Shown here: one piece after another, positions 2,347 through 64,000 of the stretch
Numbering within the stretch: the first letter of the stretch is position 1
Layout: the number at the start of each line of letters is the position of its first letter
Assembly: GCA_014360805.1 (NCBI GenBank)
Contig: JACIWU010000005.1
Location: 1,206 to 65,205, forward strand
Direction: 5' to 3'
From: Chloroflexota bacterium
GTDB taxonomy: Bacteria; Chloroflexota; Anaerolineae; DTLA01
Length of the DNA stretch: 64,000 bases
Made by a program: the position numbers and the translations under genes
Notes under the pieces: model-generated
Databases searched by the model: none
What the model was told of the DNA's origin: nothing
What the model saw: only the letters and a program-made list of their open reading frames with translations

Positions 2347-4392
<2,046 letters not shown>

Positions 4393-4883: not shown

Positions 4884-4896
4884 CTCGCTACCCCCG

Positions 4897-5915: not shown

Positions 5916-5922
5916 ATCCACC

Positions 5923-7110: not shown

Positions 7111-7120
7111 AGTCCCCCCA

Positions 7121-8221
7121 TCAGCGGTCTACGTCAGCAAGGGTGATGTCAATGCTTCCCAGAATCGTTACCACGTCGGCCACCTTGTGCCCGAGGCACA
7201 TCTCGCGCAGCGCCGACAGGTTGATGAGCGACGGCGGACGGTTGCGCCAACGGTACGGGTTGGGCGAACCGTCGCTGACTAGGTAGAAGCCCAGTTCGCC
7301 CTTGGGCGATTCAATGCGGGCGTAGGCTTCGCCCTTGGGTGGGCGCAGGCGCGACGGAACCTTGGTGGCGTACTCCCCGTCGGGGATGCGTTCCACGGCC
7401 TGGCGCAAAATCTTGAGGCTCTCGTCCATCTCGTCCAGGCGCTGGAGATAGCGCGCGTATACATCGCCGGCCACCTGGGTCGGCACGTCAAACTCAAACT
7501 GGTCGTAGATGGAATACGGCTCGGCCTTGCGCACGTCGTACTTCACGCCCGACGCGCGCAGCACCGGCCCCGTGATGCTGTAGGCCACCGCCATGTCCGC
7601 CGGCAGGAAGCCCACGCCCACGGCCCTCGCCTTGAAAATCTCGTTGTCCGAAAGGTAGTCGCGAATCTCCTGGACGAAGTTCTCCAGGTGGGGAATCATC
7701 TGCCGCAGGAGCGGGAGGAACTCCGCAGGGAGATCGCCCGACACGCCGCCCGGCCGGATGTAGTTGCACATCATGCGCGACCCGCTGGCCATCTCAAACA
7801 GGTCCAGGATGCGCTCGCGCTCGCGGAACGCATAGACCACGGGCGTGTACCAGGCCCCCAGGTCGTTGAACAGGAACCCGACGGCCAGCATGTGGTTGAC
7901 CAGACGGGTCAGTTCGGCCATGATGACGCGGATGTATTCGGCGCGGATGGGGACCTCAATGCCCGCCAGTTTCTCCACGGCCACCGCGTAGGCAAAATTG
8001 TTGCTCATGGAGCAGATATAGTCCAGGCGGTCGGTGAAGGGAACGGCCTGAAGGTAGGTTCGGCTTTCGCTGGTCTTTTCCAGCCCTCGGTGCAGGTAGC
8101 CGAACATGGGCTTGAGGTCCACGATGGTCTCCCCGTTGAGGGTCAAAACCATGCGGAAGACGCCGTGCGTGCTGGGGTGTTGGGGCCCCATGTTGATGGT
8201 GATCGTCTCGGTCTTTAGCAT
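7121..8221 (-). CDS. nuoD: NADH-quinone oxidoreductase subunit D (49 kDa)
   Basis: [31 protein letters not shown] is a classic NuoD N-terminus. 366 aa. Confidence 0.92.
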
Positions 8222-8269
8222 TGTTCCCCCGCTGTTCCTCGGAATCAGGCGCTCGGAGCCTCGGCCGCG

Positions 8270-8791
8270 CTACCAGTTGGGCGGTTTGGGACGGGTCGGC
8301 TCCAACTCCTTGTACGTGTACAGGCGGTTCTCAAAATCTTTGCGTAGAGGATGCCCCGGAAAGCCATCCCACAGCATGATGCGGCGCAGGTCGGGATGAT
8401 TCCGGAACGAGATGCCCATGAGGTCATAGACCTCGCGCTCCTGGTAGTTGGCCCCCGGCCAGATGGGCGTTACCGAGTCCACCTCGGGGTGCTCCTTATC
8501 GGGCAGGTGGACTTTCAGCGTCAGGACGCCCCCGCCGCGCTTCATGCTGAACAGGTGGTAAACGACCTCAAATCGGTCGGGATAGTCCACGCTCGTTACG
8601 TCGGAAAGATAGTCAAAATCCAGATGATCGCGCAGGTGAGTCGCCACCTCCACCAATCGTTCCGCGGGGACAATCAGGGTAAAGTCCTTGGTCTCCTCGG
8701 TCTGCACCTGGAACGCGACATCTGGGAACGCGTCTTTCAGCCTTGACAGGATTTCTTCGTTGGTCACTCCTCTACCTCTCCGGACGGTCAT
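8270..8791 (-). CDS. nuoC: NADH-quinone oxidoreductase subunit C (30 kDa)
   Basis: 173 aa. The EVYDLMGISFRNHPDLRRIMLWDGFPGHPLRKDF motif belongs to the NuoC family. Confidence 0.9.
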   Translation of the reverse strand: MTVRRGRGVTNEEILSRLKDAFPDVAFQVQTEETKDFTLIVPAERLVEVATHLRDHLDFDYLSDVTSVDYPDRFEVVYHLFSMKRGGGVLTLKVHLPDKEHPEVDSVTPIWPGANYQEREVYDLMGISFRNHPDLRRIMLWDGFPGHPLRKDFENRLYTYKELEPTRPKPPNW

Positions 8792-8835
8792 TGGCGAACG
8801 CGCCTGCGCCGGCGGCGCGTCGGCGCTAGGCTTCC

Positions 8836-9360
8836 TTACTTCTCCTTGCCGTACCAGCGCACCGTCTTGATGGACTGGGCGCGCACCATCTGGTGGATCT
8901 TGCGGATACCGTCAAACAGCGCCTCGGGGCGCGGGGGGCATCCGGGCACGTACACGTCCACCGGCACGATCTCGTCCACGCCCTGAAGCACGGCGTAGGA
9001 CTTGAAGATGCCGCCGCTAATGGCGCAAGAACCCATGGCCAGGCAATACTTGGGTTCGGGCATCTGATCCCAGATGCGCTTGACCTGCGGCGCCATCTTG
9101 TGGGTAACGGTGCCGGCCACGATCATCAGGTCGGCGTGGCGGGGGGATGCGCGGTAGAACTCCATCCCAAAGCGCGCGATGTCGTAGCGGGCCGTGGACG
9201 CGCCGATCATCTCAATGGCGCAGCACGCCAGACCGAACATCGCCGGCCACATGGAGTATTGGCGTCCCCAGTTGTAAATCCAATCCACGGTGGTAAGAAA
9301 TATGTTGCGGTCAATCTTCTCTACCGGAACAGCGTCGTCTTCAAACATACGATCTCCCAA
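8836..9360 (-). CDS. nuoB: NADH-quinone oxidoreductase subunit B (20 kDa, N2 cluster)
   Basis: [16 protein letters not shown] ... GSCAISGG ... VPGCPPRPE cysteine motifs. Confidence 0.92.
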
Positions 9361-9387
9361 CGCGAACAGATGCGGCGCGCCCTGCCG

Positions 9388-9756
9388 CTACATCCATCGG
9401 AGCGCGCCCTTGCGCCAAGCGTAGGCCAGCCCCGCGACCAGAATGCCCACGAAGATGAACGCCTCCACCAGCGCAAACAGCCCCAGGCGGTTGTAGGCCA
9501 CCGCCCACGGGTACAGGAACACCGTCTCCACATCAAACACAACGAACACGAGCGCGTAGAGATAGTACTGGGCCTTGAACTGCACCCAAGTCTCGCCGAT
9601 GGTCTCAAGGCCGCACTCATATGTGGAGGATTTCACAGGGTCTGGCCGCTTGGGGCGAAGGAGGTACGCCAAGCCCAGCGCCACAAAGGGGAAGGCAATG
9701 GCGATGAGCAGGTACAAGCCGAGGAAGCCGTAGTTGTCTTGCACGCCAACCTCCAT
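9388..9756 (-). CDS. nuoA: NADH-quinone oxidoreductase subunit A
   Basis: 122 aa with 3 TM helices. [10 protein letters not shown] and [12 protein letters not shown] motifs of NuoA/ND3. Confidence 0.9.
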
Positions 9757-9788
9757 CGTTGGTGTCAGGGTTCACAAGCCCTGGCGCG

Positions 9789-9817
9789 ATTATAGCACGG
9801 AAACGCCCAAATGCGAA
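9789..9817 (-). promoter_or_regulatory. Candidate sigma70 promoter of the nuo operon: -35 TTCGCA, 17 bp spacer, -10 TATAAT, embedded in the motif cGTGCTATAATc
   Basis: Read on the minus strand about 30 nt upstream of the nuoA ATG. The same GTGCTATAAT -10 module recurs at 27568 and 41644. Confidence 0.4.
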
Positions 9818-9925
9818 AACAGGCTTCCGCGCGAAAACATGGGCAGAGAGATCAGCAGGGCCAATGCTCTGCCGATCTCTCATCCTATCGCAGGCTATCG
9901 CGCGTTTGCGCGCTTTTTCTCGCTC

Positions 9926-10870
9926 TCATACCAACGGGCGCGGCGCATACAGCTCCGACCCGAGGCGCGACAGAATCGCCGCCCCGACGGCCAACGACGC
10001 AATCGCCGCATAGACAAGCCCGCCCAGGCAGCAGGGCAGATACGTCAGCAGCATCAGCACAAACGCGCCCACCAGCACCGCCACCGCGGGCGCGAACGAC
10101 CGCGCGCCGAAGCCCTTGAGCAGGCGCTCGCCCATCTCCAGCCCCAGCGCCGCCAGCCCCAGCATCCCAACCGCCCACACGGCCGCCCACACGAGCGCCC
10201 CCAAGACGGCCAGGCAAATGATGATGATCAGCAAGAACCCGAGAACCAGAGCCACGAGATAGGCAAGGAACCCCACACCCAGCGACGCCCACGGCGCGAC
10301 ACGCACCGTCTGCCGCACCTTGTGGACGCGGTCGGGGAACAGCACGACGACGAGCACGGCAACCAGCACGCTCAACATCTTGCTGAGGAAGCCGCTGACC
10401 GCATTCCACAGCCAGCCGCCCTCCCATCGCCACTCCCACGGGCGGCCGACGGATGGCAGCGAAGGAATTCCAGCCCCCCTGCCGAGTTCCTCCCAGCCCG
10501 ACCGCACCTCGCCCCGCACGATGGCGAGCGACTCATGATTCACCGCCCCGCCCAGAGCCGACACATCGCCTTCCGTCACCGAGCCAGAGCGGAGCGTTAC
10601 GTCGCCCCCGATCACGAGGACGCTCCCGCGCACGGTGCCCGCGGAGACGACATTCCCGCCCACCACCAGGATGTCCCCCTCGGCAACCCCGCCGAAGGGC
10701 ACGTTGACATCGCCGTCCACCACCACCAGATCCGAACGAAGAGGACTCCCTAGGGCAATGCTTACGTCCCGTCCGATGACGATCTCCAAGCCCCCCTGGG
10801 CGAAGACGGGCGCCGCCGCCGCCACCACCAGCGCGAGCGCAACAACCAGAACCAGGGCCAGACGTTTCAT
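9926..10870 (-). CDS. Secreted/membrane-anchored hypothetical protein: signal peptide, Gly/Val-rich beta-helix repeats (bactofilin/DUF4097-like), C-terminal polytopic membrane domain
   Basis: MKRLALVLVVALALVVAAAAPVFA signal peptide. Repeats GDVNVPFGGVAEGDILVVGGNVVSAGTVRGSVLVIGGDVTLRSGSV. About 5 C-terminal TM segments. Confidence 0.6.
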   Translation of the reverse strand: MKRLALVLVVALALVVAAAAPVFAQGGLEIVIGRDVSIALGSPLRSDLVVVDGDVNVPFGGVAEGDILVVGGNVVSAGTVRGSVLVIGGDVTLRSGSVTEGDVSALGGAVNHESLAIVRGEVRSGWEELGRGAGIPSLPSVGRPWEWRWEGGWLWNAVSGFLSKMLSVLVAVLVVVLFPDRVHKVRQTVRVAPWASLGVGFLAYLVALVLGFLLIIIICLAVLGALVWAAVWAVGMLGLAALGLEMGERLLKGFGARSFAPAVAVLVGAFVLMLLTYLPCCLGGLVYAAIASLAVGAAILSRLGSELYAPRPLV

Positions 10871-11018
10871 GCGCAGCCTCCTTAATCGGGCAATATCGGA
10901 TTCTCCGCCTACCTTTAAATCTACCTGAACCGACAGATTTAAGACGAGCCGTTCTTGACTTTAGGCCCCGAAAGGCTTATCCTAGAAACGCAACCAAATC
11001 CACGGGAAGGGGCTTCAG

Positions 11019-11663
11019 ATGTACCGTCATCCCTACATTGCCATTGAAGGGCCCATCGGCGTAGGCAAGACCACGCTGGCCCGCCTTCTCCAGCCCGAAC
11101 TGGGCGCGTCGCTGCTGCTAGAAGTCTTTGAAGAAAACCCGTTTCTGAAGGACTTCTACCGCGACCGAGAGCGCTACGCCTTCCAGACGCAGATCTTCTT
11201 CCTGCTCAGCCGCTACCACCAGCAACACAAAGCCGTCCCCAAGGCGTTGGAAAAAGGCCCCCTCATCAGCGACTACACCTTCGCCAAAGACCGCATCTTC
11301 GCGCACCTGAACCTGCGCAACGAAGAACTGGCGCTGTACGAGCAACTCCACGCCGCGATGGCCGAGAAGATTCCCGTGCCCACGCTGGTCATCTACCTGC
11401 GCGCATCCTTGGACGCGCTGATGGAACGGATCGCCCTGCGCGACCGCCCCTACGAGCGCAACATGGACCGCGACTACATCCGCGAACTCAGCGAAGCCTA
11501 CGAGCGGTTCTTTGAGCATTATACCCAAAGTCCGGTTTTGACGCTAGACACGGACACCCTGAACTACGTCCGCAATTCCGACGACCTGAACCTGGTCCTG
11601 GAGCGAGTCCGAAGCGCCCTGCGCCACGCGCCGTACCAGCAGCCGCTCATTGAAATCCCGTAG
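11019..11663 (+). CDS. Deoxynucleoside kinase (dAK/dCK/dGK family), paralog 1
   Basis: IAIEGPIGVGKTTLARLL P-loop. dNK-family length and motifs (ERY..FQ, DRI). Confidence 0.8.
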   Translation: MYRHPYIAIEGPIGVGKTTLARLLQPELGASLLLEVFEENPFLKDFYRDRERYAFQTQIFFLLSRYHQQHKAVPKALEKGPLISDYTFAKDRIFAHLNLRNEELALYEQLHAAMAEKIPVPTLVIYLRASLDALMERIALRDRPYERNMDRDYIRELSEAYERFFEHYTQSPVLTLDTDTLNYVRNSDDLNLVLERVRSALRHAPYQQPLIEIP

Positions 11664-11721
11664 CCCCATACCCACCGGCAAGGACAGGTTCATCCAATTC
11701 CTCATGTGAGGCGACGAGAGC

Positions 11722-12357
11722 ATGGGCAAGTTTATCGCAGTGGCGGGGAATGTGGGCGTCGGCAAGTCCACGCTGACACACCTGTTGAGCGCGCGGCTGG
11801 GCTGGGAGCCGTTCTATGAAGCCGTGGACGACAACCCGTATCTGGCGGACTTCTACAGCGACATGCGGCGATGGAGTTTCCACTCGCAGATCTTCTTCCT
11901 GTCGCGCCGCCTGCGCCACCATCGGGAAATCCTCAGCCACCCCAATACGGTGATCCAGGACCGCAGCGTGTACGAAGACGCGGAAATCTTCGCCCGCAAC
12001 CTGTATCTCCAGGGGCACATGCAGGCCCGCGACTACCGCTGCTACCGCGAATTGTACGAGGTGCTGACCCAGTTCCTGCCCCCGCCGGACCTGGTCGTGT
12101 ACCTGCGGGCCTCGGTGCCCACGCTCCAGCATCGCATCGCGCTGCGCGGGCGCGACTTTGAACGCCAGATTCCCGACGAGTACCTGGCCCAGTTGAACAC
12201 CCTGTACGAGGACTGGATTGAAGGCTTCACCCTCTGCCCTGTGCTCACGGTTCCCGCCGACCAGTTGGACTTCGTGAAGTACAACTCGCACCTTGAGTTG
12301 ATCTGCGAGAAAATCCTAGACAAACTTCAGGGGAAGGAAGTCGTCGTCTTTGACTGA
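11722..12357 (+). CDS. Deoxynucleoside kinase, paralog 2 (tandem with 11019..11663)
   Basis: IAVAGNVGVGKSTLTHLL P-loop. About 35% identical to the upstream paralog by eye. Tandem dAK/dGK-like arrangement. Confidence 0.8.
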   Translation: MGKFIAVAGNVGVGKSTLTHLLSARLGWEPFYEAVDDNPYLADFYSDMRRWSFHSQIFFLSRRLRHHREILSHPNTVIQDRSVYEDAEIFARNLYLQGHMQARDYRCYRELYEVLTQFLPPPDLVVYLRASVPTLQHRIALRGRDFERQIPDEYLAQLNTLYEDWIEGFTLCPVLTVPADQLDFVKYNSHLELICEKILDKLQGKEVVVFD

Positions 12358-12374
12358 CCCTCGGCAAGAACGAT

Positions 12375-12810
12375 ACTTCGCGCAGATTCGTACTATTCGT
12401 AGATGCGCATGACCCCGCGCGGGGCTGAACCCCCGCGCTACGTGGGCGAAGCCCCCTCCGGGGGCTAACCCCAGCCCGCAGGGCATCGCCCTCTCAGCCC
12501 GATGCTTCAGCGTCGGGCGGGCACGCCAGCACATCCCCTCTCCCACTGGGAGAGGGCTAGGGTGAGGGGCGACGCGCGGGGCTGAACCCCCGCGCTACGT
12601 GGGCGAAGCCTCCTCCGGGGGCTAACCCCAGCCCGCAGGGCTTCGCCCTCTCAGCCCGATGCTTCAGCGTCGGGCGACAAGGAACCGCGAACCCACGCGA
12701 ATAAACGCGAATTTGCCCCAGCCCGCAGGGCTTCGCCCCTTCAGCCCGATGCTTCAGCGTCGGGCTGAACACCCTTCGCGCAGATTCGTGTGATTCCTGG
12801 ATGCCCATGA
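12375..12810. repeat. Non-coding structured repeat block (family B). Two full ~100-bp copies (12415..12508 and 12574..12676) and one partial copy (12716..12776), bracketed by about 35-bp direct repeats (12376..12413 and 12774..12812)
   Basis: The unit gggctgaacccccgcgctacgtgggcgaagccccctccgggggctaaccccagcccgcagggcttcgccctctcagcccgatgcttcagcgtcgggcg contains nested inverted repeats: gggcgaagcc/ggcttcgccc, ccccctccggggg and cagcccga/tcgggctg. ORFs 12316..12546 and 12557..12808 in the track are artefacts of this block. Confidence 0.8.
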
Positions 12811-12828
12811 CCTGCTTTTTGACAGCAG

Positions 12829-12857
12829 CCCCTCCAAATGGTACAATATGTCAGACA
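12829..12857 (+). promoter_or_regulatory. Consensus sigma70 promoter: TTGACA, 17 bp spacer, TACAAT
   Basis: Exact -35 hexamer (12829..12834) and -10 TACAAT (12852..12857), 65 nt upstream of the 12923 ATG. GGAGG RBS at 12911. Confidence 0.7.
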
Positions 12858-12858
12858 T

Positions 12859-12874
12859 CTGACAAACCTGCCGA
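12859..12874 (+). promoter_or_regulatory. Perfect 7-2-7 palindromic operator-like site TGTCAGA-CA-TCTGACA overlapping the predicted transcription start
   Basis: Begins 2 nt after the -10 box. No matching palindrome elsewhere in the window. Confidence 0.5.
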
Positions 12875-12922
12875 GGACGCATCCGACCGCAAACGGCAGG
12901 AAGCATACCACGGAGGCAAGGC

Positions 12923-14392
12923 ATGATTGACCTGACCCTTCACCCTGAATCTCTGCAACGTTCGGTGCAGCGGGCCCGCGAACGGCACATCATCATCCCC
13001 ACCTTCGCCCAGATGAAAGACCCGTCGCTCATCCCCGACTCCATCAAGGCGCGGCTGAAGAACGTCGGCTTGTGGGACGTGAATCCCCTCAACCTGTTCC
13101 GCATCACGTGGAAGAACGAGCCGGTGCCCTTCGGCGGCGGGTTTGACGGGGTCAACTACGTGGAACTGCCGCCTTCGCTAACGGGGGTGCCCGCCCGCAT
13201 CATCGCCCTCGTGGGCAAATGGTTCCCCACGGGCGCGCACAAGGTGGGCGCCACCTTTGGCTGCCTGGTTCCGCGGCTGGTAACGGGCCAGTTTGACCCT
13301 TCCTACCACAAGGCCGTCTGGCCGTCCACCGGCAACTTCTGCCGGGGCGGGGCGTACAACGCCGCGCTCCTGGGTTGCGAGTCCATCGCCATCCTGCCCG
13401 AGGAAATGAGCCGCGAGCGGTTTGAGTGGCTATCCAAACTCGCCGGCGAGGTGATCGCCACCCCAGGCTGCGAAAGCAACGTCAAGGAAATCTTTGACAA
13501 ATGCTGGGAACTCCGCAGGACCCGCGGCGACAAAGTCTTCATCTTCAACCAGTTTGAGGAGTTCGGCAACTACCTTTGGCATTACGAGGTCACCGGCCAC
13601 GCGATGGAAGAAGTGCTGCGCCAGGTGATGGGGCCGCGCGACGAGTACCGAGGCGTGGTGCTCACCACCGGCTCGGCGGGCACCATCGGCTGCGGCGACT
13701 ACATGAAGCAGGTCTTCCCCGCCAGCAAGGTCGCCGCCAGCGAGGCGCTCCAGTGTCCCACGCTGCTCCTCAACGGCTTCGGCGGACACCGCATTGAGGG
13801 CATCGGCGACAAGCACGTGCCCTGGGTGCACAACATCAAGAACACCGATCTCGTGATGGCCATAGACGACGAAGCGTGCGTCAGCCTGGTGCGCCTATTC
13901 AACGAGCCGGCCGGTCGGGCCTACCTGGTCAAGCGCGGCGTCCCCGAATCCCTCGTCGGGCGGCTGGACCTGCTGGGCATCTCCAGCATCGCCAACGTCC
14001 TGTCGGCCATCAAGTTCGCCAAGTGGTACGAACTCGGCGAGCACGACATCGTGCTGACGGTCTGGACCGACTCCATGGAACTGTACCAGAGCCGCGTGCA
14101 GGAATTGCGCGCCGAGCGCGGCGAGTACACCGAAAAGGACGCCGCGGCCGACTACAGCCGCTACCTGCTGGGGTGCAGCGTGGACTACGTGGAGGAACTG
14201 GGCTACTGGGACCGCAAGCGGGTGCACAACCTCAAGTACTTCACATGGGTAGAGCAGCAGGGCAAGACCGTGGCCGAGATTCAGGCCCAGTGGTACGACC
14301 CGGACTACTGGACCGGGTTCCAGCGCCAGGTTCCGGAGATAGACGCGCTCATCCAGCAGTTCAACGAGATGACGGGATTGCTGAAGGGCTAG
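12923..14392 (+). CDS. PLP-dependent fold-type II enzyme, TrpB-like (tryptophan synthase beta-related) family
   Basis: 489 aa. The FPTGAHKVGA motif resembles the TrpB HTGAHK lysine motif. Gly-rich GSAGTIGCG PLP-phosphate loop. C-terminal extension. Confidence 0.6.
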   Translation: MIDLTLHPESLQRSVQRARERHIIIPTFAQMKDPSLIPDSIKARLKNVGLWDVNPLNLFRITWKNEPVPFGGGFDGVNYVELPPSLTGVPARIIALVGKWFPTGAHKVGATFGCLVPRLVTGQFDPSYHKAVWPSTGNFCRGGAYNAALLGCESIAILPEEMSRERFEWLSKLAGEVIATPGCESNVKEIFDKCWELRRTRGDKVFIFNQFEEFGNYLWHYEVTGHAMEEVLRQVMGPRDEYRGVVLTTGSAGTIGCGDYMKQVFPASKVAASEALQCPTLLLNGFGGHRIEGIGDKHVPWVHNIKNTDLVMAIDDEACVSLVRLFNEPAGRAYLVKRGVPESLVGRLDLLGISSIANVLSAIKFAKWYELGEHDIVLTVWTDSMELYQSRVQELRAERGEYTEKDAAADYSRYLLGCSVDYVEELGYWDRKRVHNLKYFTWVEQQGKTVAEIQAQWYDPDYWTGFQRQVPEIDALIQQFNEMTGLLKG

Positions 14393-14582
14393 CCCGTAGC
14401 CCATCCGTAGGGCAGGTTTCCATACCTGACCTATGGATGGGGGGGCAGCCCGCAGGGGGTTACCCCTCACATCCCCCTGACCCCCTTCTCTCCCCGCAGG
14501 CGGGGCGAAAAGGGGGAATGGGCGCGCGGGGCTGGGCCGTCTCCTCTCCCGCCGAGAGTATGGGCGACGCATGCGGTAGGAG

Positions 14583-14617
14583 CGACACATGTGTCGGGGC
14601 GACACATGTATCGCCCC
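14583..14617. other. Two adjacent ACATGT-centred palindromes (CGACACATGTGTCG perfect 14-mer; GGGCGACACATGTATCGCCC) in a convergent intergenic gap
   Basis: Seen directly in the sequence. Lies between the 3' ends of the TrpB-like gene and the nitroreductase gene. Confidence 0.5.
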
Positions 14618-14638
14618 TACTTTGCGCCGGGCGCGGCA

Positions 14639-15217
14639 TCACTCGCGGCTCCCTGCGCCCTCCCCGAACGTCCAGCGATCCCACGCCACCGTCTCCGCAA
14701 ACGGCTTGCGCGTGCGCGGCTTCTCATCCTTGGCCCGCGTCTCCTCGTCCAGCAGGTCAATGGGGCCTTCGTATCCCAGCGCGACCACCGCCACGACGCT
14801 GTACGCTTCCGGGATGTCCAGGGCCGCCTTCACCTTGGGCGCGCTGTAGCCAGCCATCGGGTGGCCCATCAGCCCCTCCTGCACGGCCGCCAGCAGCAGG
14901 TTCTCCACCCCCAACCCGCACGCGAACAGATGGTACGAGACGGGGTCATCCTTGCGCACATAGTCGTCCTCGGCCCGTGCGCACACCGCGATGAGCACCG
15001 GAGCCTTCCACGCCCAGCGGTTGCCGCGGTTCAGCGCCTCCCGAAATGCCGCCAGGCGCTGCGGGTCGCGCACCACGACAAACCGCCACGGCTGATTGTT
15101 GTTGGCCGAGGGAGCCCAGCGCGCCGCCTCCAAAATGCGCAGCAGGGCATCTTCGGGCACGGGTTTGTCCAGAAAGGACCGCTTGCTATGTCGGCGGAAG
15201 AAAAGAGAGTCCTCCAT
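14639..15217 (-). CDS. Nitroreductase family protein (start placed at MEDSLFF)
   Basis: RHSKRSFLDKPVPEDALLRILEAARWAPSANNNQPWRFVVV is a canonical nitroreductase N-terminus. The 20-aa upstream extension in the track is optional. Confidence 0.75.
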   Translation of the reverse strand: MEDSLFFRRHSKRSFLDKPVPEDALLRILEAARWAPSANNNQPWRFVVVRDPQRLAAFREALNRGNRWAWKAPVLIAVCARAEDDYVRKDDPVSYHLFACGLGVENLLLAAVQEGLMGHPMAGYSAPKVKAALDIPEAYSVVAVVALGYEGPIDLLDEETRAKDEKPRTRKPFAETVAWDRWTFGEGAGSRE

Positions 15218-15284
15218 AAGAACCCCCGAGCGTGGTAATTTGCGCGAAACTATAGGACGGACAGCCGTGGGTGTCAAACCGAGC

Positions 15285-18014
15285 CTAGCGGCCTACTTTG
15301 GGAATCCACAGCCGATAGCGCGGCGTGGGCGTCGGACTTGGAGTCGGGCTAGGGGTTGGGCCGGGCGGCGTGCCCACGCTCACCTGGTCTATGACGGCCA
15401 CGGTGGGCCGCTGCGAGGAGTCCTGCCAGACGTTGAGAATCAACTGCACGGTGCGCCCGCGCCACGGCGAAAGGTCGTACACGAACAGTTGCCAGCCCGG
15501 CGTCGTCTGCCACACCGTGCGCGGCGGCATCGGCTCGTACCGCGTCGTGCCATCAATGAGGAGCACCTCCAGCCAGTCGTGGCCGGCCTCGCTCTCCAGG
15601 GTTACCACCTGGTACACAAGCGACAGGTACACCGGCGATTGCGTCTGCGGTATGGCGATGCTCTGGCTGACGGTGGAATTGCCGCCGCCGCCCAACTCCG
15701 GCTGGCCCACGAAGTCCTTGCCCAGCGCCAGCGACCGCAGGCCGGCGAACCCGGCGGTGTGAACCTGCGCGGGCGTACTCCCGCCAGGGGTCCAGCCCTC
15801 CAGCCCCGCCTCAAAATCCCCGTTGCTGACCAGGTTCACCCCAGGCGCGACGAACACGTCAAACCCCGCCACGCTTCCATCCAGCCGCAGATGGCGCGGC
15901 GACCAGGGGCTATACCCCAGCGCGTAGCCGCGGATGCCGTAGTCGCCCTTCGGAAGCCCCGCCACTTGCCACCAGCCCGACTCGTCGGCGGCGATGGTGC
16001 TCGGCATGCCCCAGGCGTTGGTTACAATCACGCTCCCGCCGGGCACCGGCGTGCCCAGGGGGTTCAGGATGCGCCCGCTGAGGACCGTGCTGGCAATCGG
16101 CGTGGGCGTCGGCGTGGCCGTGGGCTGGGGCGTTGCCGTCGGCGTGCTGGGCAGCGCGATGACGGTCTCGGTCTGCGCGGCGCGAGGCGTCGCTCCGGCG
16201 TTGCCGGCGCGGTCCACGCCGCGCGCCGCGAACCCATACGAATGCCCGGGCACGCCGCTGTAGGTCGCCGACGTGGCTTGCGTGCCCTGCAACCACAACA
16301 CCATCGGCCCGCCGTCCACGGACACGAACACATCGTAGGCGACGACGCCCGACCCCTCATCCGTTCCCTGCCAGGAGACCGTGAAACTCGTCGGGCTGTA
16401 CAGGGGAAGATCTTGCACGGTAACGACTGGCGGCGTAGTGTCCCGCTCCACCAGCATCAGCGGGCGACCGCCGATCATGTAGGTGATATGATCGGGCAGG
16501 TTGCGATTGGTGGCGGCAGGCAGCATCACCGTGTACGCCCCGTTCGTAGGGGTCAGAGGCTGCGCCGAGCCGTCCTGGCCAAGCGCCATAGCCTGGGTTC
16601 CCACCGCGCCCACCTGAACAACGACGGGCGACCCACGCGTGGCCCACAGGAACAGCACGCGCTCGCGCGTGTCGGGGCGATAGTAGGCGATCTCCTCGTG
16701 GTCGCCCTGAAGGTTGCGCCGCCAGAGGGGGATCGCCCCGTTGAGGTACGCGGCCGCCAGTTGGTAAGCCTTGTACGAGGGCCGAGGCGAATTGGGCGAC
16801 GAATGGCTCCGAAAACAGATGGCGTCGGCGGGGTTCCGGTACAGCCCGTAGGCATCGCCCACGTCGTTCGTGCCCGCGGGACTGTTGCCGCAATCGTCGT
16901 ACAATTGGAAATGGAAAATCCGCTCGGCGCCGGCGTAGAACCCGTAGGCGTAGTTCTGGATGATGTAAGCCGCCTGCTCCTCCATCGTGGCGCGGTACAG
17001 GCTGGCAGGGTCCCACGTGGGGCCTGGATAGTCGTTCCAGACCGGCACGCCGCTCTCGTTGATCCAGATGGCCTTCGCCCCCAGGCCGTACTTCTGGAGC
17101 AGCGTGCGCACGCGCCGCACCTGGTAGTATGTCTCATACGACGTGCTGTAGATGTGCAGAGGGAGGACGTCAAAGTACCAGCCATTGGCGTCGCGCTGCG
17201 TCCGCGCGGTGTCGGCCTTCATGACCTCCAGCAGGTTTTCCAGCCAGTTGGGCGTGATGTAGATGGCCAGGCCGCCCAAGAGCACCGTGCAATCCGGATC
17301 GGCGAACTTGGCCGCGATGTACGCCACCTTCAGTAGGCGATAGTAGTCCTGCACCGAGCCGTTCCAGAACAGGGCGTAGTCCGGCTCGTTCCAAATCTCC
17401 CAGTGGCGGATGCGCGGGGTGTAGCGCGCCACAGCCTCGTAAACAAACCTGGCCCACGGGTTGGCAGAGTTGACGCTCTTGCCCGGAGCCGGAATATCCG
17501 TGCCATCGCTGAAGATCGGCGCGTATAGATTCTTGGGCGCGGAACTGGCCGGGCTAATCGGTTGCCGCTCGCTCGGCCCGGATAGGGGCACCGGCCGCTT
17601 GCCCACCTGCGGCAGAGGCGCGCCGCTCTGCCCAGCCGTCGCGTACTGGGAAGGCGTGCCCAGCAGGATGGCGTTGGTCCTGAGTCCGTTGGCCTGATCG
17701 GACGCGACGACGCGGTCCACGGCGCTCCAATCAAAAGCGCCGCTGCTCTGCTCCACGTTCCCCCAGTAGATGGGCCAGCGGTTCCAGGCCGCGCCGGCGG
17801 CAACCGCCTTGCCATACCGCCCCGCGTCCGCGGGAGCCTCGGCGGAACTCACGAAACACAGGCCGAAGCGGTCGTTGAGTGGCACCGTCTGGCCGATGAC
17901 CTCATCCGGCTCGGGCGGGCGGAACGCGCCCACCGCGGCAGGCCCGGGCACCTGCGTGAGGGCCAGGCAGACGACGATGTACAGGAGCCCCAACCGCAAC
18001 CGACGCGATGTCAT
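15285..18014 (-). CDS. Secreted multidomain glycoside hydrolase (clan GH-A TIM barrel, GH5/GH39-like) with FN3-like, Thr/Pro linker and C-terminal carbohydrate-binding-like domains. Start re-placed at ATG 18014 (MTSRRLRLGLLYIVV...)
   Basis: Signal peptide. HWEIWNEPD catalytic-acid motif. Linkers PTPTATPQPTATPTPTPIAS and [14 protein letters not shown]. The 136-codon upstream extension in the track overlaps the next gene and is not coding. Confidence 0.7.
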   Translation of the reverse strand: MTSRRLRLGLLYIVVCLALTQVPGPAAVGAFRPPEPDEVIGQTVPLNDRFGLCFVSSAEAPADAGRYGKAVAAGAAWNRWPIYWGNVEQSSGAFDWSAVDRVVASDQANGLRTNAILLGTPSQYATAGQSGAPLPQVGKRPVPLSGPSERQPISPASSAPKNLYAPIFSDGTDIPAPGKSVNSANPWARFVYEAVARYTPRIRHWEIWNEPDYALFWNGSVQDYYRLLKVAYIAAKFADPDCTVLLGGLAIYITPNWLENLLEVMKADTARTQRDANGWYFDVLPLHIYSTSYETYYQVRRVRTLLQKYGLGAKAIWINESGVPVWNDYPGPTWDPASLYRATMEEQAAYIIQNYAYGFYAGAERIFHFQLYDDCGNSPAGTNDVGDAYGLYRNPADAICFRSHSSPNSPRPSYKAYQLAAAYLNGAIPLWRRNLQGDHEEIAYYRPDTRERVLFLWATRGSPVVVQVGAVGTQAMALGQDGSAQPLTPTNGAYTVMLPAATNRNLPDHITYMIGGRPLMLVERDTTPPVVTVQDLPLYSPTSFTVSWQGTDEGSGVVAYDVFVSVDGGPMVLWLQGTQATSATYSGVPGHSYGFAARGVDRAGNAGATPRAAQTETVIALPSTPTATPQPTATPTPTPIASTVLSGRILNPLGTPVPGGSVIVTNAWGMPSTIAADESGWWQVAGLPKGDYGIRGYALGYSPWSPRHLRLDGSVAGFDVFVAPGVNLVSNGDFEAGLEGWTPGGSTPAQVHTAGFAGLRSLALGKDFVGQPELGGGGNSTVSQSIAIPQTQSPVYLSLVYQVVTLESEAGHDWLEVLLIDGTTRYEPMPPRTVWQTTPGWQLFVYDLSPWRGRTVQLILNVWQDSSQRPTVAVIDQVSVGTPPGPTPSPTPSPTPTPRYRLWIPKVGR

Positions 18015-18037
18015 TTGCCCTTCCCGCTCTCCCTGGA

Positions 18038-18526
18038 TTAGAACTCCACGGTCTCGGCCTCGTGGGTTTCCGTATCGTACAACGCAAAAGTCGGCTTCCC
18101 GAAACGCCCCATCACCTCGCCTGGGTTGAGCACCAGGGTGCGCCCCTCCCACGTGTGGACGGCCTTGTGGGTGTGGCCGAAGAAGACGGCGTCGTACCGT
18201 CCCGACGGGGCGATGGCCGCGGCGATGTGCGGGTAATGGGTCAGCGCGATCTTCCGGCCGCCCAGTTCCAATTCCGCCAGGCCATCCGTGTACAGGCGAA
18301 CGCGCCCGCTCCCCGAGGCCACGCGGAGCAGAAGCGCCACGTCGCCGTCGTTGTTGCCCTGCATGACGTGGATCGGCCCCGCGAACCCGTCGGCCAGCAT
18401 CTTCAGCGAGAACGGCGCGCACAGGTCGCCGCAGAACAGGAGCACATCGGCCCCCTGAACCCGCCGCAGCGCCTTCTCCAGATTCCAGATGTTGTCGTGG
18501 CTATCGGACATGACCGCGATCTTCAT
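18038..18526 (-). CDS. Metallophosphoesterase, YfcE/MJ0936 family (start at MKIAVMSDSHDN)
   Basis: MKIAVMSDSHDN...GDLCAP...GNND...GHTH motifs of the calcineurin-like phosphodiesterase family. 163 aa. Confidence 0.75.
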   Translation of the reverse strand: MKIAVMSDSHDNIWNLEKALRRVQGADVLLFCGDLCAPFSLKMLADGFAGPIHVMQGNNDGDVALLLRVASGSGRVRLYTDGLAELELGGRKIALTHYPHIAAAIAPSGRYDAVFFGHTHKAVHTWEGRTLVLNPGEVMGRFGKPTFALYDTETHEAETVEF

Positions 18527-18763
18527 GCACACCTCCTGCACCGAGAGAGTTGCAGGAAGTATACCACAGCCGTGCGGTGTTGACAGGAGACACCGTGCAA
18601 CTTGCGGGCCAAACCCGCGGCGAAGGCGCGAAGCAAGGCATGCGCGAACCGTGCGCGGCGCCCCGATCCGCCTGGACCTACGTGGGTCCACTTCGCGTCA
18701 GACTCAGTTCCAAACCGGATTGGTCTGTCCCGCACACCGCCTTCCCGCTCCTTGTCATGCTGA

Positions 18764-18897
18764 GCCGAAGGCAGAGGGCAGGTATGGAAACCTGCCCTAC
18801 ACTCGCCATGGGTTGGCGCCGCAATCCCAAGACCCGTAGGGCGGCTTTCCATAGCCGCCCAAGGCAGAAGCCGGGCACGGAAACCTGCCCTACGGCC
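18764..18897. repeat. Family A double-hairpin repeat: one partial copy (18764..18800) and one full copy (18836..18897)
   Basis: cgtagggcggctttccatagccgcc...ggaaacctgccctacgg. Matches copies at 22251, 22359, 32468, 41750, 51890 and 63834. Confidence 0.8.
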
Positions 18898-19036
18898 CAT
18901 TCGTTTCATGCTGCCGCCCGTCGGTCTGCCAAGTTCCCACCGAAATGTACACGGTGCACACTACCCTCAGCGCACCATTTGTCGCACCGCGCCGTGCTGT
19001 GGTACAATTCGGCACGCTTCGGAGGCGCAAGGACGC

Positions 19037-20032
19037 ATGTGGAACATAATCGGGCATGAATGGGCCGTTCGCCTCCTGTCCGGCAGCCTTGCGGACGGGC
19101 GGTTGTCCCATGCGTACCTGTTCACGGGGCCGCCAGGGGTGGGCAAGACCACGCTGGCCCTGAACTTCGCGCAGGCCATCGTGTGCGAGGGCAGCGAGCC
19201 GCCCTGCCAACAATGCGCCCCCTGCCAGCAGGTCGCGCGGCTGACCCATCCCGACGTGCGGCTGGTGGAAGCCGATGGCGCGACGTTCAAGATCGGCCAG
19301 GTGCGCGAACTGGAGCGAGAGGCGGCGCTGGCGCCCCATTCGGCCCGCCACCGCGTGTACATCCTGGCCGAGACCGAGCGCATGTCCAGAGAGGCGGCCA
19401 ATGCGCTCCTAAAGACGCTGGAGGAGCCGCCGGAGCCGGTCGTGCTGATCCTGCTGGCCAGCGATGCGGCCCTGCTTCCGCCGACCATCGTGTCGCGCTG
19501 CCAGTGCCTGGATCTGCGGCCGGTGCCGCTGCGCCAACTGGCGCAGTCGCTGGTGGAGCGCGAGGGGGCCGACCCCGCGCAGGCCGAACTCCTGGCGAGG
19601 GCGAGCGGCGGCAGGCCCGGCTGGGCCATCTCGGCCCTGCGCGACCCGTCGGTCATGCAGGCGCGCATCCGGCATCTGGACGACCTGCAACGCCTGCTGG
19701 GGAGCGACCTAGTAGAGCGGTGGCAATGGGCCGCCGAGGCCTCCACCGACCGGCGCGCCGTGCGCGAACTGCTGGACTTCTGGGTGTCCTGGTGGCGCGA
19801 CGTGCTCCTGGTGGCCGCGGGCCAGGGCGACAACATCGCCAACCTGGACCGCCGCGACGCCTTGCAGGCCGTGGCCGCCTGGTGCCCGGCTGACAGCGCC
19901 CGCGCCTTTCTCGCCCAGGCGCTGCGCACCATGCGGAGCCTGGCGCAAAACGTCAACACGCGGCTGGCGCTGGAGGTTCTGACCATGGACATGCCTTCGG
20001 CGCCCCGACGGCAAGAAACTCACGGAGGGTGA
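19037..20032 (+). CDS. holB: DNA polymerase III subunit delta-prime (start at ATG 19037, MWNIIGHEW)
   Basis: YLFTGPPGVGKTTLA Walker A. CxxCxxC zinc module (CQQCAPCQQ). SRC motif (IVSRCQ). Confidence 0.85.
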   Translation: MWNIIGHEWAVRLLSGSLADGRLSHAYLFTGPPGVGKTTLALNFAQAIVCEGSEPPCQQCAPCQQVARLTHPDVRLVEADGATFKIGQVRELEREAALAPHSARHRVYILAETERMSREAANALLKTLEEPPEPVVLILLASDAALLPPTIVSRCQCLDLRPVPLRQLAQSLVEREGADPAQAELLARASGGRPGWAISALRDPSVMQARIRHLDDLQRLLGSDLVERWQWAAEASTDRRAVRELLDFWVSWWRDVLLVAAGQGDNIANLDRRDALQAVAAWCPADSARAFLAQALRTMRSLAQNVNTRLALEVLTMDMPSAPRRQETHGG

Positions 20033-22250: not shown

Positions 22251-22412
22251 CTGCGGGGCGGCTTCCCATAGCCGCCAACAGGGCAGGTATGGAAACCTGC
22301 CCTACGTATCCACGAATAACACGAATTCACACGAATGGAGAATAGACCCCAAAAGTTTCGTAGGGCGGCTTCCCATAGCCGCCAACAGGGCAGGTATGGA
22401 AACCTGCCCTAC
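22251..22412. repeat. Two tandem family A double-hairpin copies (22251..22310 and 22359..22412) with a conserved cgaataacacgaat flank
   Basis: ggcggcttcccatagccgccaacagggcaggtatggaaacctgccctac occurs twice. Track ORFs 22213..22434 and 22096..22278 are artefacts of this repeat. Confidence 0.8.
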
Positions 22413-27659: not shown

Positions 27660-27950
27660 GGCGGGGCGCACACCCCACCCCAACCCCATTCGCGTGGATT
27701 CGCGCGATTCGCGATGACGGTTGGGGGCGACAACGTGCGCCGCACCTTCGCCTCCGCCGCAGGCAGGGAATGTAGAGCAAATTGGCAATTTGCTCTACAC
27801 GCGCGGGGCTAACCCCAGCCCGCAGGGCTTTGCACCTTCAGCCCGATGCTTTAGCGTCAGGCCGGCGGGGCGCACACCCCACCCCAACCCCCATTCGCGT
27901 GGATTCGCGCGATTCGCGATGACGGTTGGGGGCGACAACGTGCGCCGCAA
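27660..27950. repeat. Composite repeat region: an approximately 85-bp direct repeat (27660..27745 and 27862..27950) flanking a partial family B copy (27801..27862)
   Basis: ggcgcacaccccaccccaaccccattcgcgtggattcgcgcgattcgcgatgacggttgggggcgacaacgtgcgccgca occurs twice. Between them, gctaaccccagcccgcagggctttgcaccttcagcccgatgctttagcgtcagg matches the 12.4-kb repeat unit. Confidence 0.8.
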
Positions 27951-32467: not shown

Positions 32468-32528
32468 GCGTAGGGCAGGTTTCCATACCTGCCCCCTGCG
32501 TCCGGCGGCTATGGAAAGCCGCCCTACG
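32468..32528. repeat. Family A double-hairpin repeat, inverted orientation
   Basis: cgtagggcaggtttccatacctgccccctgcgtccggcggctatggaaagccgccctacg. Confidence 0.8.
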
Positions 32529-51889: not shown

Positions 51890-51943
51890 CGTAGGGCGGC
51901 TTTCCATAGCCACCGAAGGGCAGGTATGGAAACCTGCCCTACG
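51890..51943. repeat. Family A double-hairpin repeat (canonical orientation)
   Basis: cgtagggcggctttccatagccaccgaagggcaggtatggaaacctgccctacg. Confidence 0.8.
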
Positions 51944-52022
51944 CTCTTTGCCTTTCATGCTGCCGCCCATCGTTCCGACAAGTTTGCACCGAAAGGTATA
52001 CACACCCCCTCCCCGGAAAGCC

Positions 52023-52052
52023 TTGACGCCGTCTTCCAACATGTGCTATAAT
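52023..52052 (+). promoter_or_regulatory. Candidate promoter: TTGACG, 18 bp spacer, extended -10 TGcTATAAT
   Basis: About 50 nt upstream of the 52110 ATG. GGAGG RBS at 52097. Confidence 0.5.
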
Positions 52053-52109: not shown

Positions 52110-52475
52110 ATGTGGCAATTCCTGGCCGGTCTTGTTGTGGGTCTTGCCCTGGGCTGGTGGCTGGACTGGTACCTGGGCCGCGAAGACGCGCGTGCGCTGC
52201 GCGCCGAGGTCGCCGAAAAGAATGCCACCATCGCCAAACTCCAAAAGGAACTCCTGGCATCCAAGCAGGGCGAGGTACGCGCAGCACCCAAGCCGGAGGC
52301 GGCGCCCCCTGCGCCTGCGGCGGCGGAAGGCACCGTTACCGCCTACTGCGTGAAGTGCCGCGCCAAGCGACCCATGCAGAACCCCCGCCGCGTTACCTTG
52401 AGCAACGGGCGGCCCGCGCTCAAGGGCACCTGCCCCGTCTGCAACACCGGCATGTTCCGCACCATCAAGTTGTAG
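52110..52475 (+). CDS. Small membrane protein with a C-terminal zinc-ribbon (DUF5679-like). Start at MWQFLAG
   Basis: N-terminal TM (FLAGLVVGLALGWWL), coiled coil, Ala/Pro linker. C-terminal module YCVKCRAKRPMQNPRRVTLSNGRPALKGTCPVCNTGMFR. Confidence 0.6.
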   Translation: MWQFLAGLVVGLALGWWLDWYLGREDARALRAEVAEKNATIAKLQKELLASKQGEVRAAPKPEAAPPAPAAAEGTVTAYCVKCRAKRPMQNPRRVTLSNGRPALKGTCPVCNTGMFRTIKL

Positions 52476-61983: not shown

Positions 61984-62823
61984 TCATCGCAGTCGGGCGA
62001 TGGCCGCGCCCACGCCCAGCACCAGGTATAGCCCCACGGCCAGCAACTCATAGGGCGACAGAAGCGCCCGAAAGTCCCGCGCCAGCAGCGCGATGCTGAC
62101 CAACGGCAGCAACGCCCCGATGACCATTGCCGCGCCCGTTACTGCCCACAGTTGGCGTCCCCGCCGGCGGCGCACCGCCCGAAAGATGATTTCGCCCAGC
62201 AACCCGCCCGCGGCAGGGCCGATGAAGAGCATGAAGAACCAGCCCACCAGCGAAGCCAGCAAACCTACCCCCGCGGAAAAGATCAGCGCCACGACCGCGG
62301 CGACAACATAGTCGGTCCAAACCGCGTTGTAGAATACGGCGCTCTGGGCGCGGACGCAGTCGGGACACCGAAACCCCACGGGCGTCTGGATGGCGCAGCG
62401 TGGGCAGATGGGCGTGCCGCACCGATTGCAGCGCAGCGTGGTTTCCACGTCGGGGTGGCGCGCGCAATGCAGAATCTCCTCGGTTTCGGCGACGGCGCTC
62501 TCGGGTGCGGGGGCCAGCCTGGACGGGGGCTTGTACGCCTCGGGCACCTGTCCCCGGGCGATCAACTCGGCTTCGTGGCGCCGCACCCAGGCCAGGGCCG
62601 CTTTCACCTCCTCGTTGGCAGGGTCCAACGCAGCGGCGCGCTCCAGGCAGCGGCGCTTCTCGCCCATGTCGTGCGTTACGCCGCTGAGTTCCAACCACAC
62701 GTCGGCACGGTCGGGCGCGATCTCGGAAGCGCGGCGGAACAACGACTCCGCCACCGCATCCTCGCCCGCGCGGTGCGCCGCCCGTCCCTGCTGCAACAGT
62801 TCCCGAACCTCGTCCGCGGTCAT
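61984..62823 (-). CDS. Membrane-anchored protein with an N-terminal TPR-like region and a B-box/zinc-ribbon (C-x2-H ... C-x2-C ... C-x2-C ... C-x2-C), then 3-4 TM helices
   Basis: HCARHPDVETTLRCNRCGTPICPRCAIQTPVGFRCPDCV, followed by hydrophobic segments. Confidence 0.5.
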   Translation of the reverse strand: MTADEVRELLQQGRAAHRAGEDAVAESLFRRASEIAPDRADVWLELSGVTHDMGEKRRCLERAAALDPANEEVKAALAWVRRHEAELIARGQVPEAYKPPSRLAPAPESAVAETEEILHCARHPDVETTLRCNRCGTPICPRCAIQTPVGFRCPDCVRAQSAVFYNAVWTDYVVAAVVALIFSAGVGLLASLVGWFFMLFIGPAAGGLLGEIIFRAVRRRRGRQLWAVTGAAMVIGALLPLVSIALLARDFRALLSPYELLAVGLYLVLGVGAAIARLR

Positions 62824-63689
62824 TCTCCCGTCTCTTCGCCGTGGTTGATGGTGAGCCGCTTCATCAGGCTGCGATAGAAATACGTGCGCTCGCGGGTGCG
62901 GATGAAACGGGCCACGTGCGCGCTCGCCGTTACGCGGACGTTGTCGCCGTCCATGACCGCCACCTCAAACTGCCCGTCCACGGTGAGCATGGCCCTGTGG
63001 TCCGTGGAGACCTCAATGCGCACCGAAGCCCCCTGCGACAGGACGATGGCGCGATCCAGGCTCAAGTGCGGGGCGATGGGAATCACCAGGATGTTCTTGA
63101 GTTCGGGCGGGAGGATGGGGCCGCCCACCGCCAGCGCGTAGGCCGTAGAACCCGTGGGCGTGGCCACGATGATGCCGTCGGCCGCGTAGGTGGTCATGTA
63201 CCCGCCGTCAATGTACGTGGCCAGGCGCACGATGCGGGCCAGCGCCCCCCGACTGACGACGACTTCGTTCAGGGCCTCGTAGGAGTTCAGGTGGTTGTCG
63301 CCCCGCAGCACCTCGGCGTGGAGCATCATCCGCTCCTCTATCCAGAAGTTGCCCTCCAGGATCGCGGGAAGCCGCTCGCGCCAGACGGCAGGCTCAAACT
63401 CGGAGAGGAAACCCAGGCGGCCCACCTTCATCGCCAGGATGGGCACGCCCATGCGCGCAGCCATACGCGCCGCCCGCAGGACGGTGCCATCGCCGCCCAG
63501 CGTGAGCAGCAAGTCCAGGTCGCAGACGCGGCTCTTCACCTCGTCCTCGTCCCAGGCCGAACACAGCCAGGGCGACAGGCCCCGCTCGCGCAGGAACGCC
63601 GCGATCTCCTCACCCAGGGGCAGCGAAGCGGGCAGTTTTGGGTGAAAGAGAATGCCTATGCGCTTGAAGGCAACCTTCTCATTGGCCAC
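62820..63689 (-). CDS. nadK: NAD kinase
   Basis: GGDGT motif (LTLGGDGTVLRAARM). NGxxxATPTGSTAYALAVGGPIL. nadK-recN linkage. Confidence 0.9.
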   Translation of the reverse strand: MANEKVAFKRIGILFHPKLPASLPLGEEIAAFLRERGLSPWLCSAWDEDEVKSRVCDLDLLLTLGGDGTVLRAARMAARMGVPILAMKVGRLGFLSEFEPAVWRERLPAILEGNFWIEERMMLHAEVLRGDNHLNSYEALNEVVVSRGALARIVRLATYIDGGYMTTYAADGIIVATPTGSTAYALAVGGPILPPELKNILVIPIAPHLSLDRAIVLSQGASVRIEVSTDHRAMLTVDGQFEVAVMDGDNVRVTASAHVARFIRTRERTYFYRSLMKRLTINHGEETGE

Positions 63690-63833
63690 GTGCGCGGTCT
63701 CGCATTCCTCTCGGATTCACAGGGTCATTATAGCCAAAGGCGGCGCGGGCGCAAGGGACGGGCGCAAACGATAGTGTATACATTTCGGTGGAGACTTACC
63801 AGACCGATGAGCGGCAGCATGAAACGCATAGAG

Positions 63834-63895
63834 CGTAGGGCGGGTTTCCATACCTGCCCCCTCTGCCTTCGGCGGCTATGGAAAGCCGCCCTACG
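63834..63895. repeat. Family A double-hairpin repeat (inverted orientation); a degenerate partial copy follows at about 63915..63960
   Basis: cgtagggcgggtttccatacctgccccctctgccttcggcggctatggaaagccgccctacg. Confidence 0.8.
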
Positions 63896-64000
63896 TGTCT
63901 CGGCATTGCGCCGCCCACCCATGGCGAGCACGGGATCGGTTTCCATGCCTGGCCCCAACATCTGTGGTCTGCGTTACGCAATTCTTACCGAAAAAGACAC

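Follow-up and report, generated by a model that had tools for sequence, protein, structure and literature searches.

A conserved module ahead of holB in an Anaerolineae genome is probably the promoter-proximal arm of a mobile mosaic repeat built around REP hairpins

Introduction

REP-type mosaic repeats are best known from Proteobacteria. By the published definition, a REP begins with a 5'-terminal GT[A/G]G tetranucleotide and continues as a palindrome (PMC3686654). REPINs, or head-to-head REP dimers, have also been defined (PMC3686654, PMC3733652), and tandem REPIN clusters with conserved flanks occur in Pseudomonas fluorescens (PMC3116915). The mosaic intergenic regions of Neisseria contain REPs that alternate with repeats of other families (PMC3733652, section 7). 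A REP family has been described from one Chloroflexi genome, namely GTAG-23 of Thermomicrobium roseum (PMC3733652), and our literature search found no description of REPs in Anaerolineae. The closest description of the element reported here is that of the palindrome-embedded REP dimers of Di Nocera et al. 2013 (PMC3733652). In these elements, GTAG-15 of Anabaena variabilis and CGTC-1 of Halothiobacillus neapolitanus, REP dimers lie inside longer palindromes (PMC3733652, section 7), and the palindromic halves were never found without REPs (PMC3733652).

We analysed a stretch of 64,000 nucleotides (hereafter the window) from an Anaerolineae genome (contig JACIWU010000005.1). The element that it contains resembles those of Di Nocera et al. 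in being intergenic and in holding GTAG REP dimers between the halves of a longer imperfect palindrome. In contrast to them, its arms are longer (~50 nt), imperfect and unrelated in sequence, its left arm is often missing, and the enclosed REPs vary, from one to at least four dimers; moreover, it shows an oriented, promoter-proximal placement that was not reported there. With REPINs, REPIN clusters and the BIMEs of Escherichia coli (PMC3116915, PMC3337134, PMC3686654), it shares inverted doublets, short spacers and tandem units with conserved flanks (f1/f2), as well as a mosaic of short motifs and a rapid turnover from strain to strain. Unlike them, its module-bearing form has a low apparent copy number (at least five in a relative metagenome-assembled genome, or MAG), and no cognate RAYT was found in the scanned DNA. 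BIMEs and REPs classically lie at the 3' ends of genes, whereas the module elements are mostly found upstream of promoters. The sequence family itself is new for Anaerolineae; the mosaic REP-in-palindrome kind has already been described.

Correia elements can supply promoter hexamers together with an IHF site, and they duplicate a TA target. Like MITEs such as these Neisseria elements (PMC10969869, PMC3184786), the element described here is small and non-coding, has what may be inverted-repeat ends and occurs in multiple intergenic copies, with presence/absence polymorphism and a location near promoters. It differs from Correia elements in that the promoter is host-derived, REP hairpins occupy the interior and no target duplication is definable.

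Results

The module is a stretch of about 51 nt with the consensus TTTCATGCTGCCGCyCrTCGGTCTGnCAAGTTTCCACCGAAATGTATACAC, of which the window holds three full copies. Copy 1, a right arm, lies at 18904..18961 on the plus strand (TTTCATGCTGCC...CACCGAAATGTACAC; nhmmer E=1e-18), copy 2 at 51953..52003 on the same strand (nhmmer E=6e-19), and copy 3, complete and inverted, at 63774..63824 on the minus strand (nhmmer E=4e-20). These copies were found without any search pattern, and the 14-mer TTTCATGCTGCCGC is identical in all three; copy 1 carries a 7-nt insertion (CGGTGCA) ahead of the terminal ACAC. An earlier note, made from the sequence alone, had aligned 18905..18955 with 51950..52005 over about 50 nt. 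This alignment was reproduced and extends without gaps over 79 nt at 80% identity (18874-18952 versus 51923-52001). The inverted partial copy that the same note had placed at 63815..63835 turned out to be a whole module (63774-63824, minus strand) and not just a 13-mer. Indeed, copy 3 shows 3 mismatches to the 51-nt consensus, a match found in 0 of 100 shuffles, and is 82-87% identical to copies 1 and 2 over 79-86 nt. When the three copies were aligned, the shared block ran from a REP dimer through a 10-nt junction (GCTCTATGCG) into the module, and the similarity broke off sharply after ...GTATACAC. The 18.9k and 63.8k copies are alike further upstream, over 93 nt (84%) that take in the REP dimer, the 34-nt linker and a partial REP.

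A GTAG-type REP dimer, referred to as Family A, immediately adjoins the 5' side of every copy in the window. The Family A unit is made of GTAG and a palindrome, either GGCGGCT-TTCCATA-GCCGCC or GGCAGGT-TTCCATA-CCTGCC, and the window contains 15 such sites where chance would give 0. These sites mostly form inverted heterodimers whose GTAG ends face outward and whose halves are 4-12 nt apart; doublets were located at 18836-18893, 22253-22305, 22360-22412, 32470-32527, 51891-51942 and 63835-63894. Family A fits the published REP definition, with its GT[A/G]G tetranucleotide, its palindrome and its closely spaced inverted doublets. The strict REPIN class also needs a cognate RAYT flanked by the same REPs, and it is by its repeat features that Family A may be placed. 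A six-frame scan of the window and the related loci for the HUH...Y..NP motif of a RAYT or transposase gave no match.

Self-alignment of the window together with a REP motif scan delimited the REP part of composite 1 to 18764..18903 (plus strand), which comprises a partial REP dimer (18764-18800), the 34-nt linker (18801-18835), a GTAG REP heterodimer (18836-18893) and the junction (18894-18903). The REP part of composite 2 (51891..51952, plus strand) consists of a GTAG REP heterodimer at 51891-51942 and the junction. Next to copy 3, the interior of a full-length element extends over 63825..63949 (minus strand), with the junction, the REP heterodimer at 63835-63894, the linker and a degenerate REP. 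Other REP sites of the window occur in varied contexts, such as a convergent gene pair at 14407 and a gap between same-strand genes at 41779. A different flank had been noticed at the 22310 and 41803 copies, and it is present there as a 32-nt repeat (22307-22338 and 41819-41850, 94% complementary). This flank belongs to a CACGAAT-like iterated family (TATCCACGAATAACACGAATTCACACGAATGG), which borders these other REP dimers at 22307-22338 and 41819-41850, is also found at 12376, 12774, 27959 and 57526, and recurs in relatives (L126, L132; related loci are numbered with L).

On the far side of the full-length element, the left arm (63950..64000, minus strand; GTGTCTTTTTCGGTAAGAATTGCGTAACGCAGACC...; E=2e-15) extends to the window end and repeats the module imperfectly in inverted orientation. 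A left arm of ~50 nt (GTGTCTTTTTCGGTGGGAATTGCGTAACGCAGACC...) is found at three of the eight independent loci described below (NAD kinase, L088/L124 and L131) and is absent from the other five. Its core, TTTCGGTGGrAAyTTG, is the inverted repeat of the 3' half of the module, CAArTTyCCACCGAAA, and the inverted-repeat core measures 17-26 nt at the NAD kinase and L088/L124 loci. The arm-match score was significant in two loci, where 6 of 2000 and 0 of 2000 shuffles reached it; at L131 the arm match alone was not significant in the shuffle test. For the complete NAD kinase element, the fold obtained is one long hairpin (-53.6 kcal/mol, DNA z = -4.5), whose stem joins the left arm to the whole module, with the REPs enclosed. 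The module alone showed no excess folding relative to shuffles (z = +1.2).

The element ranges in size from ~125 nt (L131, with one REP) to ~235-245 nt (~235 at the NAD kinase locus). The interior of the NAD kinase copy contains a degenerate REP, the 34-nt linker and a REP dimer, and that of L001 contains at least four dimers with a period of ~92 nt. In L129, a linker-plus-dimer unit is bordered on both sides by a copy of the junction with the first module bases, suggesting that tandem duplication at the REP-module junction is how arrays lengthen. At the five loci without a left arm, the upstream parts hold a GTGCGACGCACTTCGGAAGTGCGTCGCAC palindrome, a CGCCAACACAAG motif and CACGAAT repeats instead; this mosaic of repeat families bears out the proposal that the family is modular. 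Candidate direct repeats at the three complete copies disagree, and no target-site duplication is definable. The small size, the non-coding nature, the multiple copies and the presence/absence pattern fit the MITE class; the terminal inverted repeats are imperfect, and such an assignment, made without a target duplication, would be incomplete.

Copies were then sought beyond the window. A first scan, which used the pattern CATGCTGCCGCN{19,21}CACCGAAA on one genome per species, returned at least 120 matches, mostly due to chance; among the matches listed, five were real loci by nhmmer, all from the MAG Anaerolineae bacterium H111_75. This relative holds at least five module copies, a lower bound per genome. 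One H111_75 locus, L053, is the ortholog of window 61351-64000 (96% identity); tandem ~63-nt repeats (CTCACCCCCTCGGTCCCCCTCTCCGCGAGCGGCGAGGGGGAAGCGGA...) were observed there at 2700-3000, directly upstream of the full-length element and beyond the window end at 64000. A stricter scan of metagenomes yielded 11 further loci. Once orthologs were merged, eight independent loci were counted, three in the window and five elsewhere.

The eight loci lie at holB, a DUF5679 gene, an NAD kinase gene, a DUF4258-like/DUF2283-like pair, a membrane protein gene, an MNT-type nucleotidyltransferase gene, a gene of 1207 aa (in a lower-GC relative) and a convergent-gene locus, gene assignments outside the window being our reading of the translations. 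Mean pairwise identity across them is 83% in the module and 25%, the random level, in the next 40 nt. The search patterns themselves required TTCATGCTGCCGC, TCG and CACCGAAA, which partly accounts for the invariance of these parts outside the window. L142 was found via a protein and not via the module pattern; its module, at the DUF5679 locus, is decayed, with ~73% identity to the window copy as counted by eye from the sequences. In L001/L130 the module adjoins a convergent gene, with no promoter. The eight unrelated loci, the sharp 3' boundary, the inverted left arm at three of them and the presence or absence of the element in relatives support the claim that it is mobile and MITE-like.

We next considered the promoters and genes that follow the module. 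The holB gene (DNA polymerase III delta'; 19037..20032, plus strand; PF13177, E=5e-51) is preceded by a promoter-like site, TTGTCG-18-TACAAT, at 18979..19008 (plus strand), and the DUF5679 gene downstream of copy 2 (52110..52475, plus strand; PF18930) by TTGACG-18-TATAAT at 52023..52052 (plus strand), both called by a promoter scan. The module does precede holB and the 52110 gene, and a -35/-10 pair does follow both forward copies, as had been claimed. The NAD kinase gene downstream of copy 3 (62820..63689, minus strand; PF20143, PF01513) has a promoter-like site, TTGCGC-16-TATAAT, at 63727..63754 (minus strand), which was read by eye; the scanner missed it because its -35 fits at just 3 of 6 positions. 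In all three window copies, the -35/-10 pair starts 17-19 nt past the module and is followed by a co-oriented gene. Upstream of composite 2, directly after rny, we observed a 16-bp near-perfect hairpin without a T-run (51768-51800), a possible terminator or processing site. A 24-nt motif, ACTCrGTTCCAAAC....TTGGTC, occurs at 18704-18727 and 51816-51839 (19/24 identical), 130-190 nt upstream of copies 1 and 2 only, among the loci examined, and is partly like a permuted piece of the module; a degenerate pattern derived from it matched nowhere in the window, its own two sites included, which differ in length by 1 nt.

The three promoters are also present in relatives without the module. At holB, L134 and L135 (80% protein identity) keep the divergent metallophosphoesterase/holB arrangement with a 192-nt intergenic region that contains neither REP nor module, and they still hold catTTGTCG-18-TACAAT upstream of holB; L132 (89% identity) has another repeat family upstream of holB and the same TTGTCG-18-TACAAT. 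At the NAD kinase gene, the intergenic region of L136, L137 and L139 is just 71-78 nt long, with CTTGCG-N17-TATAAT and no element, and 4-13 nt separate the upstream stop codon from the -35. At the DUF5679 gene, L143 keeps rny upstream and TTGACG-18-TATAAT ahead of the gene, with no REP or module, L142 holds the decayed orthologous module at the same distance, and in L141 the REP dimers are accompanied by no more than a remnant of the module. The element is absent from the orthologous sites in L134, L135, L136, L137, L139 and L143. Since the promoters are kept in relatives without the module, they predate the element, which comes and goes. The element therefore does not carry the promoters at the three window loci (3/3).

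This turnover extends to very close strains. A cassette of ~300 nt upstream of holB (18673..18972, plus strand) is strain-variable. L144-L148, which belong to the same 90% protein cluster and have flanks ~99% identical to the window, hold a different ~100-nt cassette at this place, and homology with the window resumes a few bases upstream of the holB -35. Among the relatives compared, none that is near-identical offers a true empty site; at holB this is because the near-identical relatives hold another cassette there. In L144-L148, the place that the REP/module cassette takes upstream of holB is occupied by a palindromic repeat family (GTGCGACGCACTTCCGGAAGTGCGTCGCAC) that is also seen in the window at 43558-43589 and 47954-47985, and in L105 at 7058-7108.

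The placement of the module relative to promoters is regular. In seven of the eight loci it lies 8-20 nt upstream of the -35 and points at the gene; measured from the CACCGAAA anchor, the best -35 starts 29, 29, 29, 26, 34, 34 and 40 nt downstream at these seven loci, the eighth being without promoter. The module end faces the downstream gene in 7/8 loci (two-sided p = 0.07). Short intergenic regions limit the insertion sites that are tolerated, and thus explain part of the placement. They do not account for the orientation, nor for the DUF5679 locus, where several hundred bases are free, and a purely selfish model predicts neither the facing bias nor the -35 spacing of 26-40 nt from CACCGAAA.

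Discussion

From the comparison of copies and relatives, the module is probably the right, promoter-proximal arm of a mobile mosaic repeat that is small and non-coding, is arranged around REP hairpins and sits beside pre-existing promoters. The complete form would be a long imperfect palindrome, in which a ~50-nt left arm and the module enclose GTAG-type REP hairpins or dimers, and tandem repeat units would be separated by the 34-nt linker. We propose that copies spread and reshuffle within one Anaerolineae lineage, with cassettes that differ even between near-identical strains, and that the element lands in the short gap just upstream of host sigma-70-type promoters, which it would neither supply nor be required for. 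The mobilising enzyme may be of the RAYT/HUH type, with the REPs as its substrate, or a DDE transposase that works on the arms. What is established here is the repeat family with its boundaries and arm pairing, its varying presence among relatives, and that three promoters are ancestral. Most copies are probably maintained as neutral or selfish DNA. There is a small chance that the element has a targeted placement or a function upstream of promoters, with insertion or selective retention 10-20 bp ahead of the -35 of sigma-70-type promoters, always in one orientation, and with exchange between near-identical strains, which would then differ in what directly precedes otherwise identical promoters. 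If so, expression might be tuned via upstream-DNA contacts, cruciform extrusion or insulation; alternatively, a bacterial transposition system might target promoter-upstream DNA.

The regularities of position can be read in several ways. The module or hairpin cassette might be an exapted cis-regulatory or architectural site, kept because it modulates promoters, whether it binds a nucleoid-associated protein or a regulator, insulates from upstream read-through, or extrudes a cruciform under transcription-driven supercoiling. Such a role would agree with the gene-facing module found 8-20 nt upstream of the -35 in 7/8 loci, with the exact 29-nt spacing from CACCGAAA to the -35 that three loci share, and with the invariance of TTTCATGCTGCCGC in the three window copies; some E. 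coli BIMEs also carry IHF sites. We nevertheless consider it unlikely. Relatives and near-identical strains have the same promoters but not the module, and the genes downstream of it are not related to one another (holB, NAD kinase, the DUF5679 gene, toxin-antitoxin-like pairs and a membrane protein). The orthologous copy in L142 has decayed to ~73%, and another copy, at the end of a convergent gene, has no promoter beside it. Moreover, short intergenic regions such as that of NAD kinase (71-78 nt, with a stop 4-13 nt before the -35) leave few tolerated sites. The more specific suggestion of an UP/regulatory element, made in the earlier note, is unlikely and found no support beyond the regular position and orientation beside promoters: the module spans about -55 to -105 instead of -40 to -60, its sequence is not rich in A/T, close strains with the same promoter do without it, and the genes that it precedes are functionally unrelated. 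An UP element would be an A/T-rich tract at -40 to -60; the base composition of the module is mixed. The same regularities of position and orientation (7/8 loci) would also arise if the insertion machinery preferred DNA upstream of active promoters, with the orientation set by transcription, in which case the association would be mechanistic and functionless. For instance, an HUH/RAYT-type enzyme could use single-stranded or negatively supercoiled DNA. IS200/IS605-type enzymes do use single-stranded DNA (PMC6006769), and the REP hairpins bear the GTAG tag of RAYT substrates (PMC3686654). This is a decidedly unlikely account, as the pattern comes from just eight loci, no RAYT appeared in the motif scan of the window and related loci, other REP sites of the window lie in varied contexts (14407, 41779), and selection against insertions elsewhere could yield the same pattern.

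The leading idea of the earlier note was that the composite may be a mobile promoter-carrying MITE; it would then donate its own outward-facing -35/-10 to downstream genes. Mobility and modularity stand, and a -35/-10 pair is indeed found at a similar distance past the module in 7/8 loci, but the promoter-carrying part is contradicted at the three window loci and very improbable: all three window promoters are present in relatives without the module, and the linker or spacer sequences between module and promoter are unrelated among copies (25% identity). The scanner called nothing but host promoters, and the candidate -35 positions fall on variable columns; a promoter inside the module (a CTGACA-18-TACACT-like match) was likewise on variable columns, was not called by the scanner and was set aside. 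It is just as hard to believe that the module encodes a small peptide (MLPLIGL..FHRNVYT) or a structured RNA. The module ATG opens a frame in every copy, and at two loci this frame reaches the downstream gene (ORF 18908-20032, and ORF 51948-52475 in frame with the DUF5679 start at 52110). Against this, no Shine-Dalgarno sequence precedes the ATG, a 1-nt deletion in L027 shifts the frame, the peptide ends vary, and the third window copy meets stop codons before the gene. The module also lies upstream of the -35, and hence outside the downstream transcript. The small-ORF reading was rejected for its lack of a ribosome-binding site, its one frameshifted copy and its variable peptide ends, and the structured-RNA reading in view of the folding of the module alone, no better than shuffles, and of Rfam, where no match was found at gathering thresholds for the window and the eight loci, and none at E <= 1 for the full element.

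The reading that we prefer, a mobile mosaic repeat beside host promoters, would imply that REP-type mosaic repeats also shape intergenic regions in uncultured Anaerolineae and turn over there between near-identical strains. It also carries a warning for annotation: the frames opened by the module ATG (18908-20032 and 51948-52475) run into holB and the DUF5679 gene and may give rise to false N-terminal extensions. The holB promoter offers a natural allele series, with a 300-nt REP/module cassette, a different 100-nt cassette or none, which suits testing whether the DNA just upstream of the -35 matters. If the oriented, promoter-proximal placement were true genome-wide, it would point to a targeting mechanism or to a regulatory use.

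Several observations concern other repeats and neighbouring genes. A stretch of ~1 kb that holds a methylase gene (N6/N4 DNA methylase, PF01555) lies downstream of the DUF5679 gene at 52480-53480 and is missing from the 95%-identical L129, where 748->782 joins window 52479 to 53481; the more distant L141 and L143 have a methylase there. A direct repeat family, CCCCAGCCCGCAGGGCTTCGCCC...CAGCCCGATGCTTCAGCGTCGGGC, of 50-104 nt, is present at 12416-12519, 12573-12676, 12716-12765 and 27760-27863, with copies 88-98% identical, and also in L001, L105 and L141. Finally, periodic repeats of ~345 nt (70-74% identical) run through 40257-41497, inside a 529-aa ORF (40176-41765, minus strand), and a 73%-identical homolog of this region adjoins the module locus L027.
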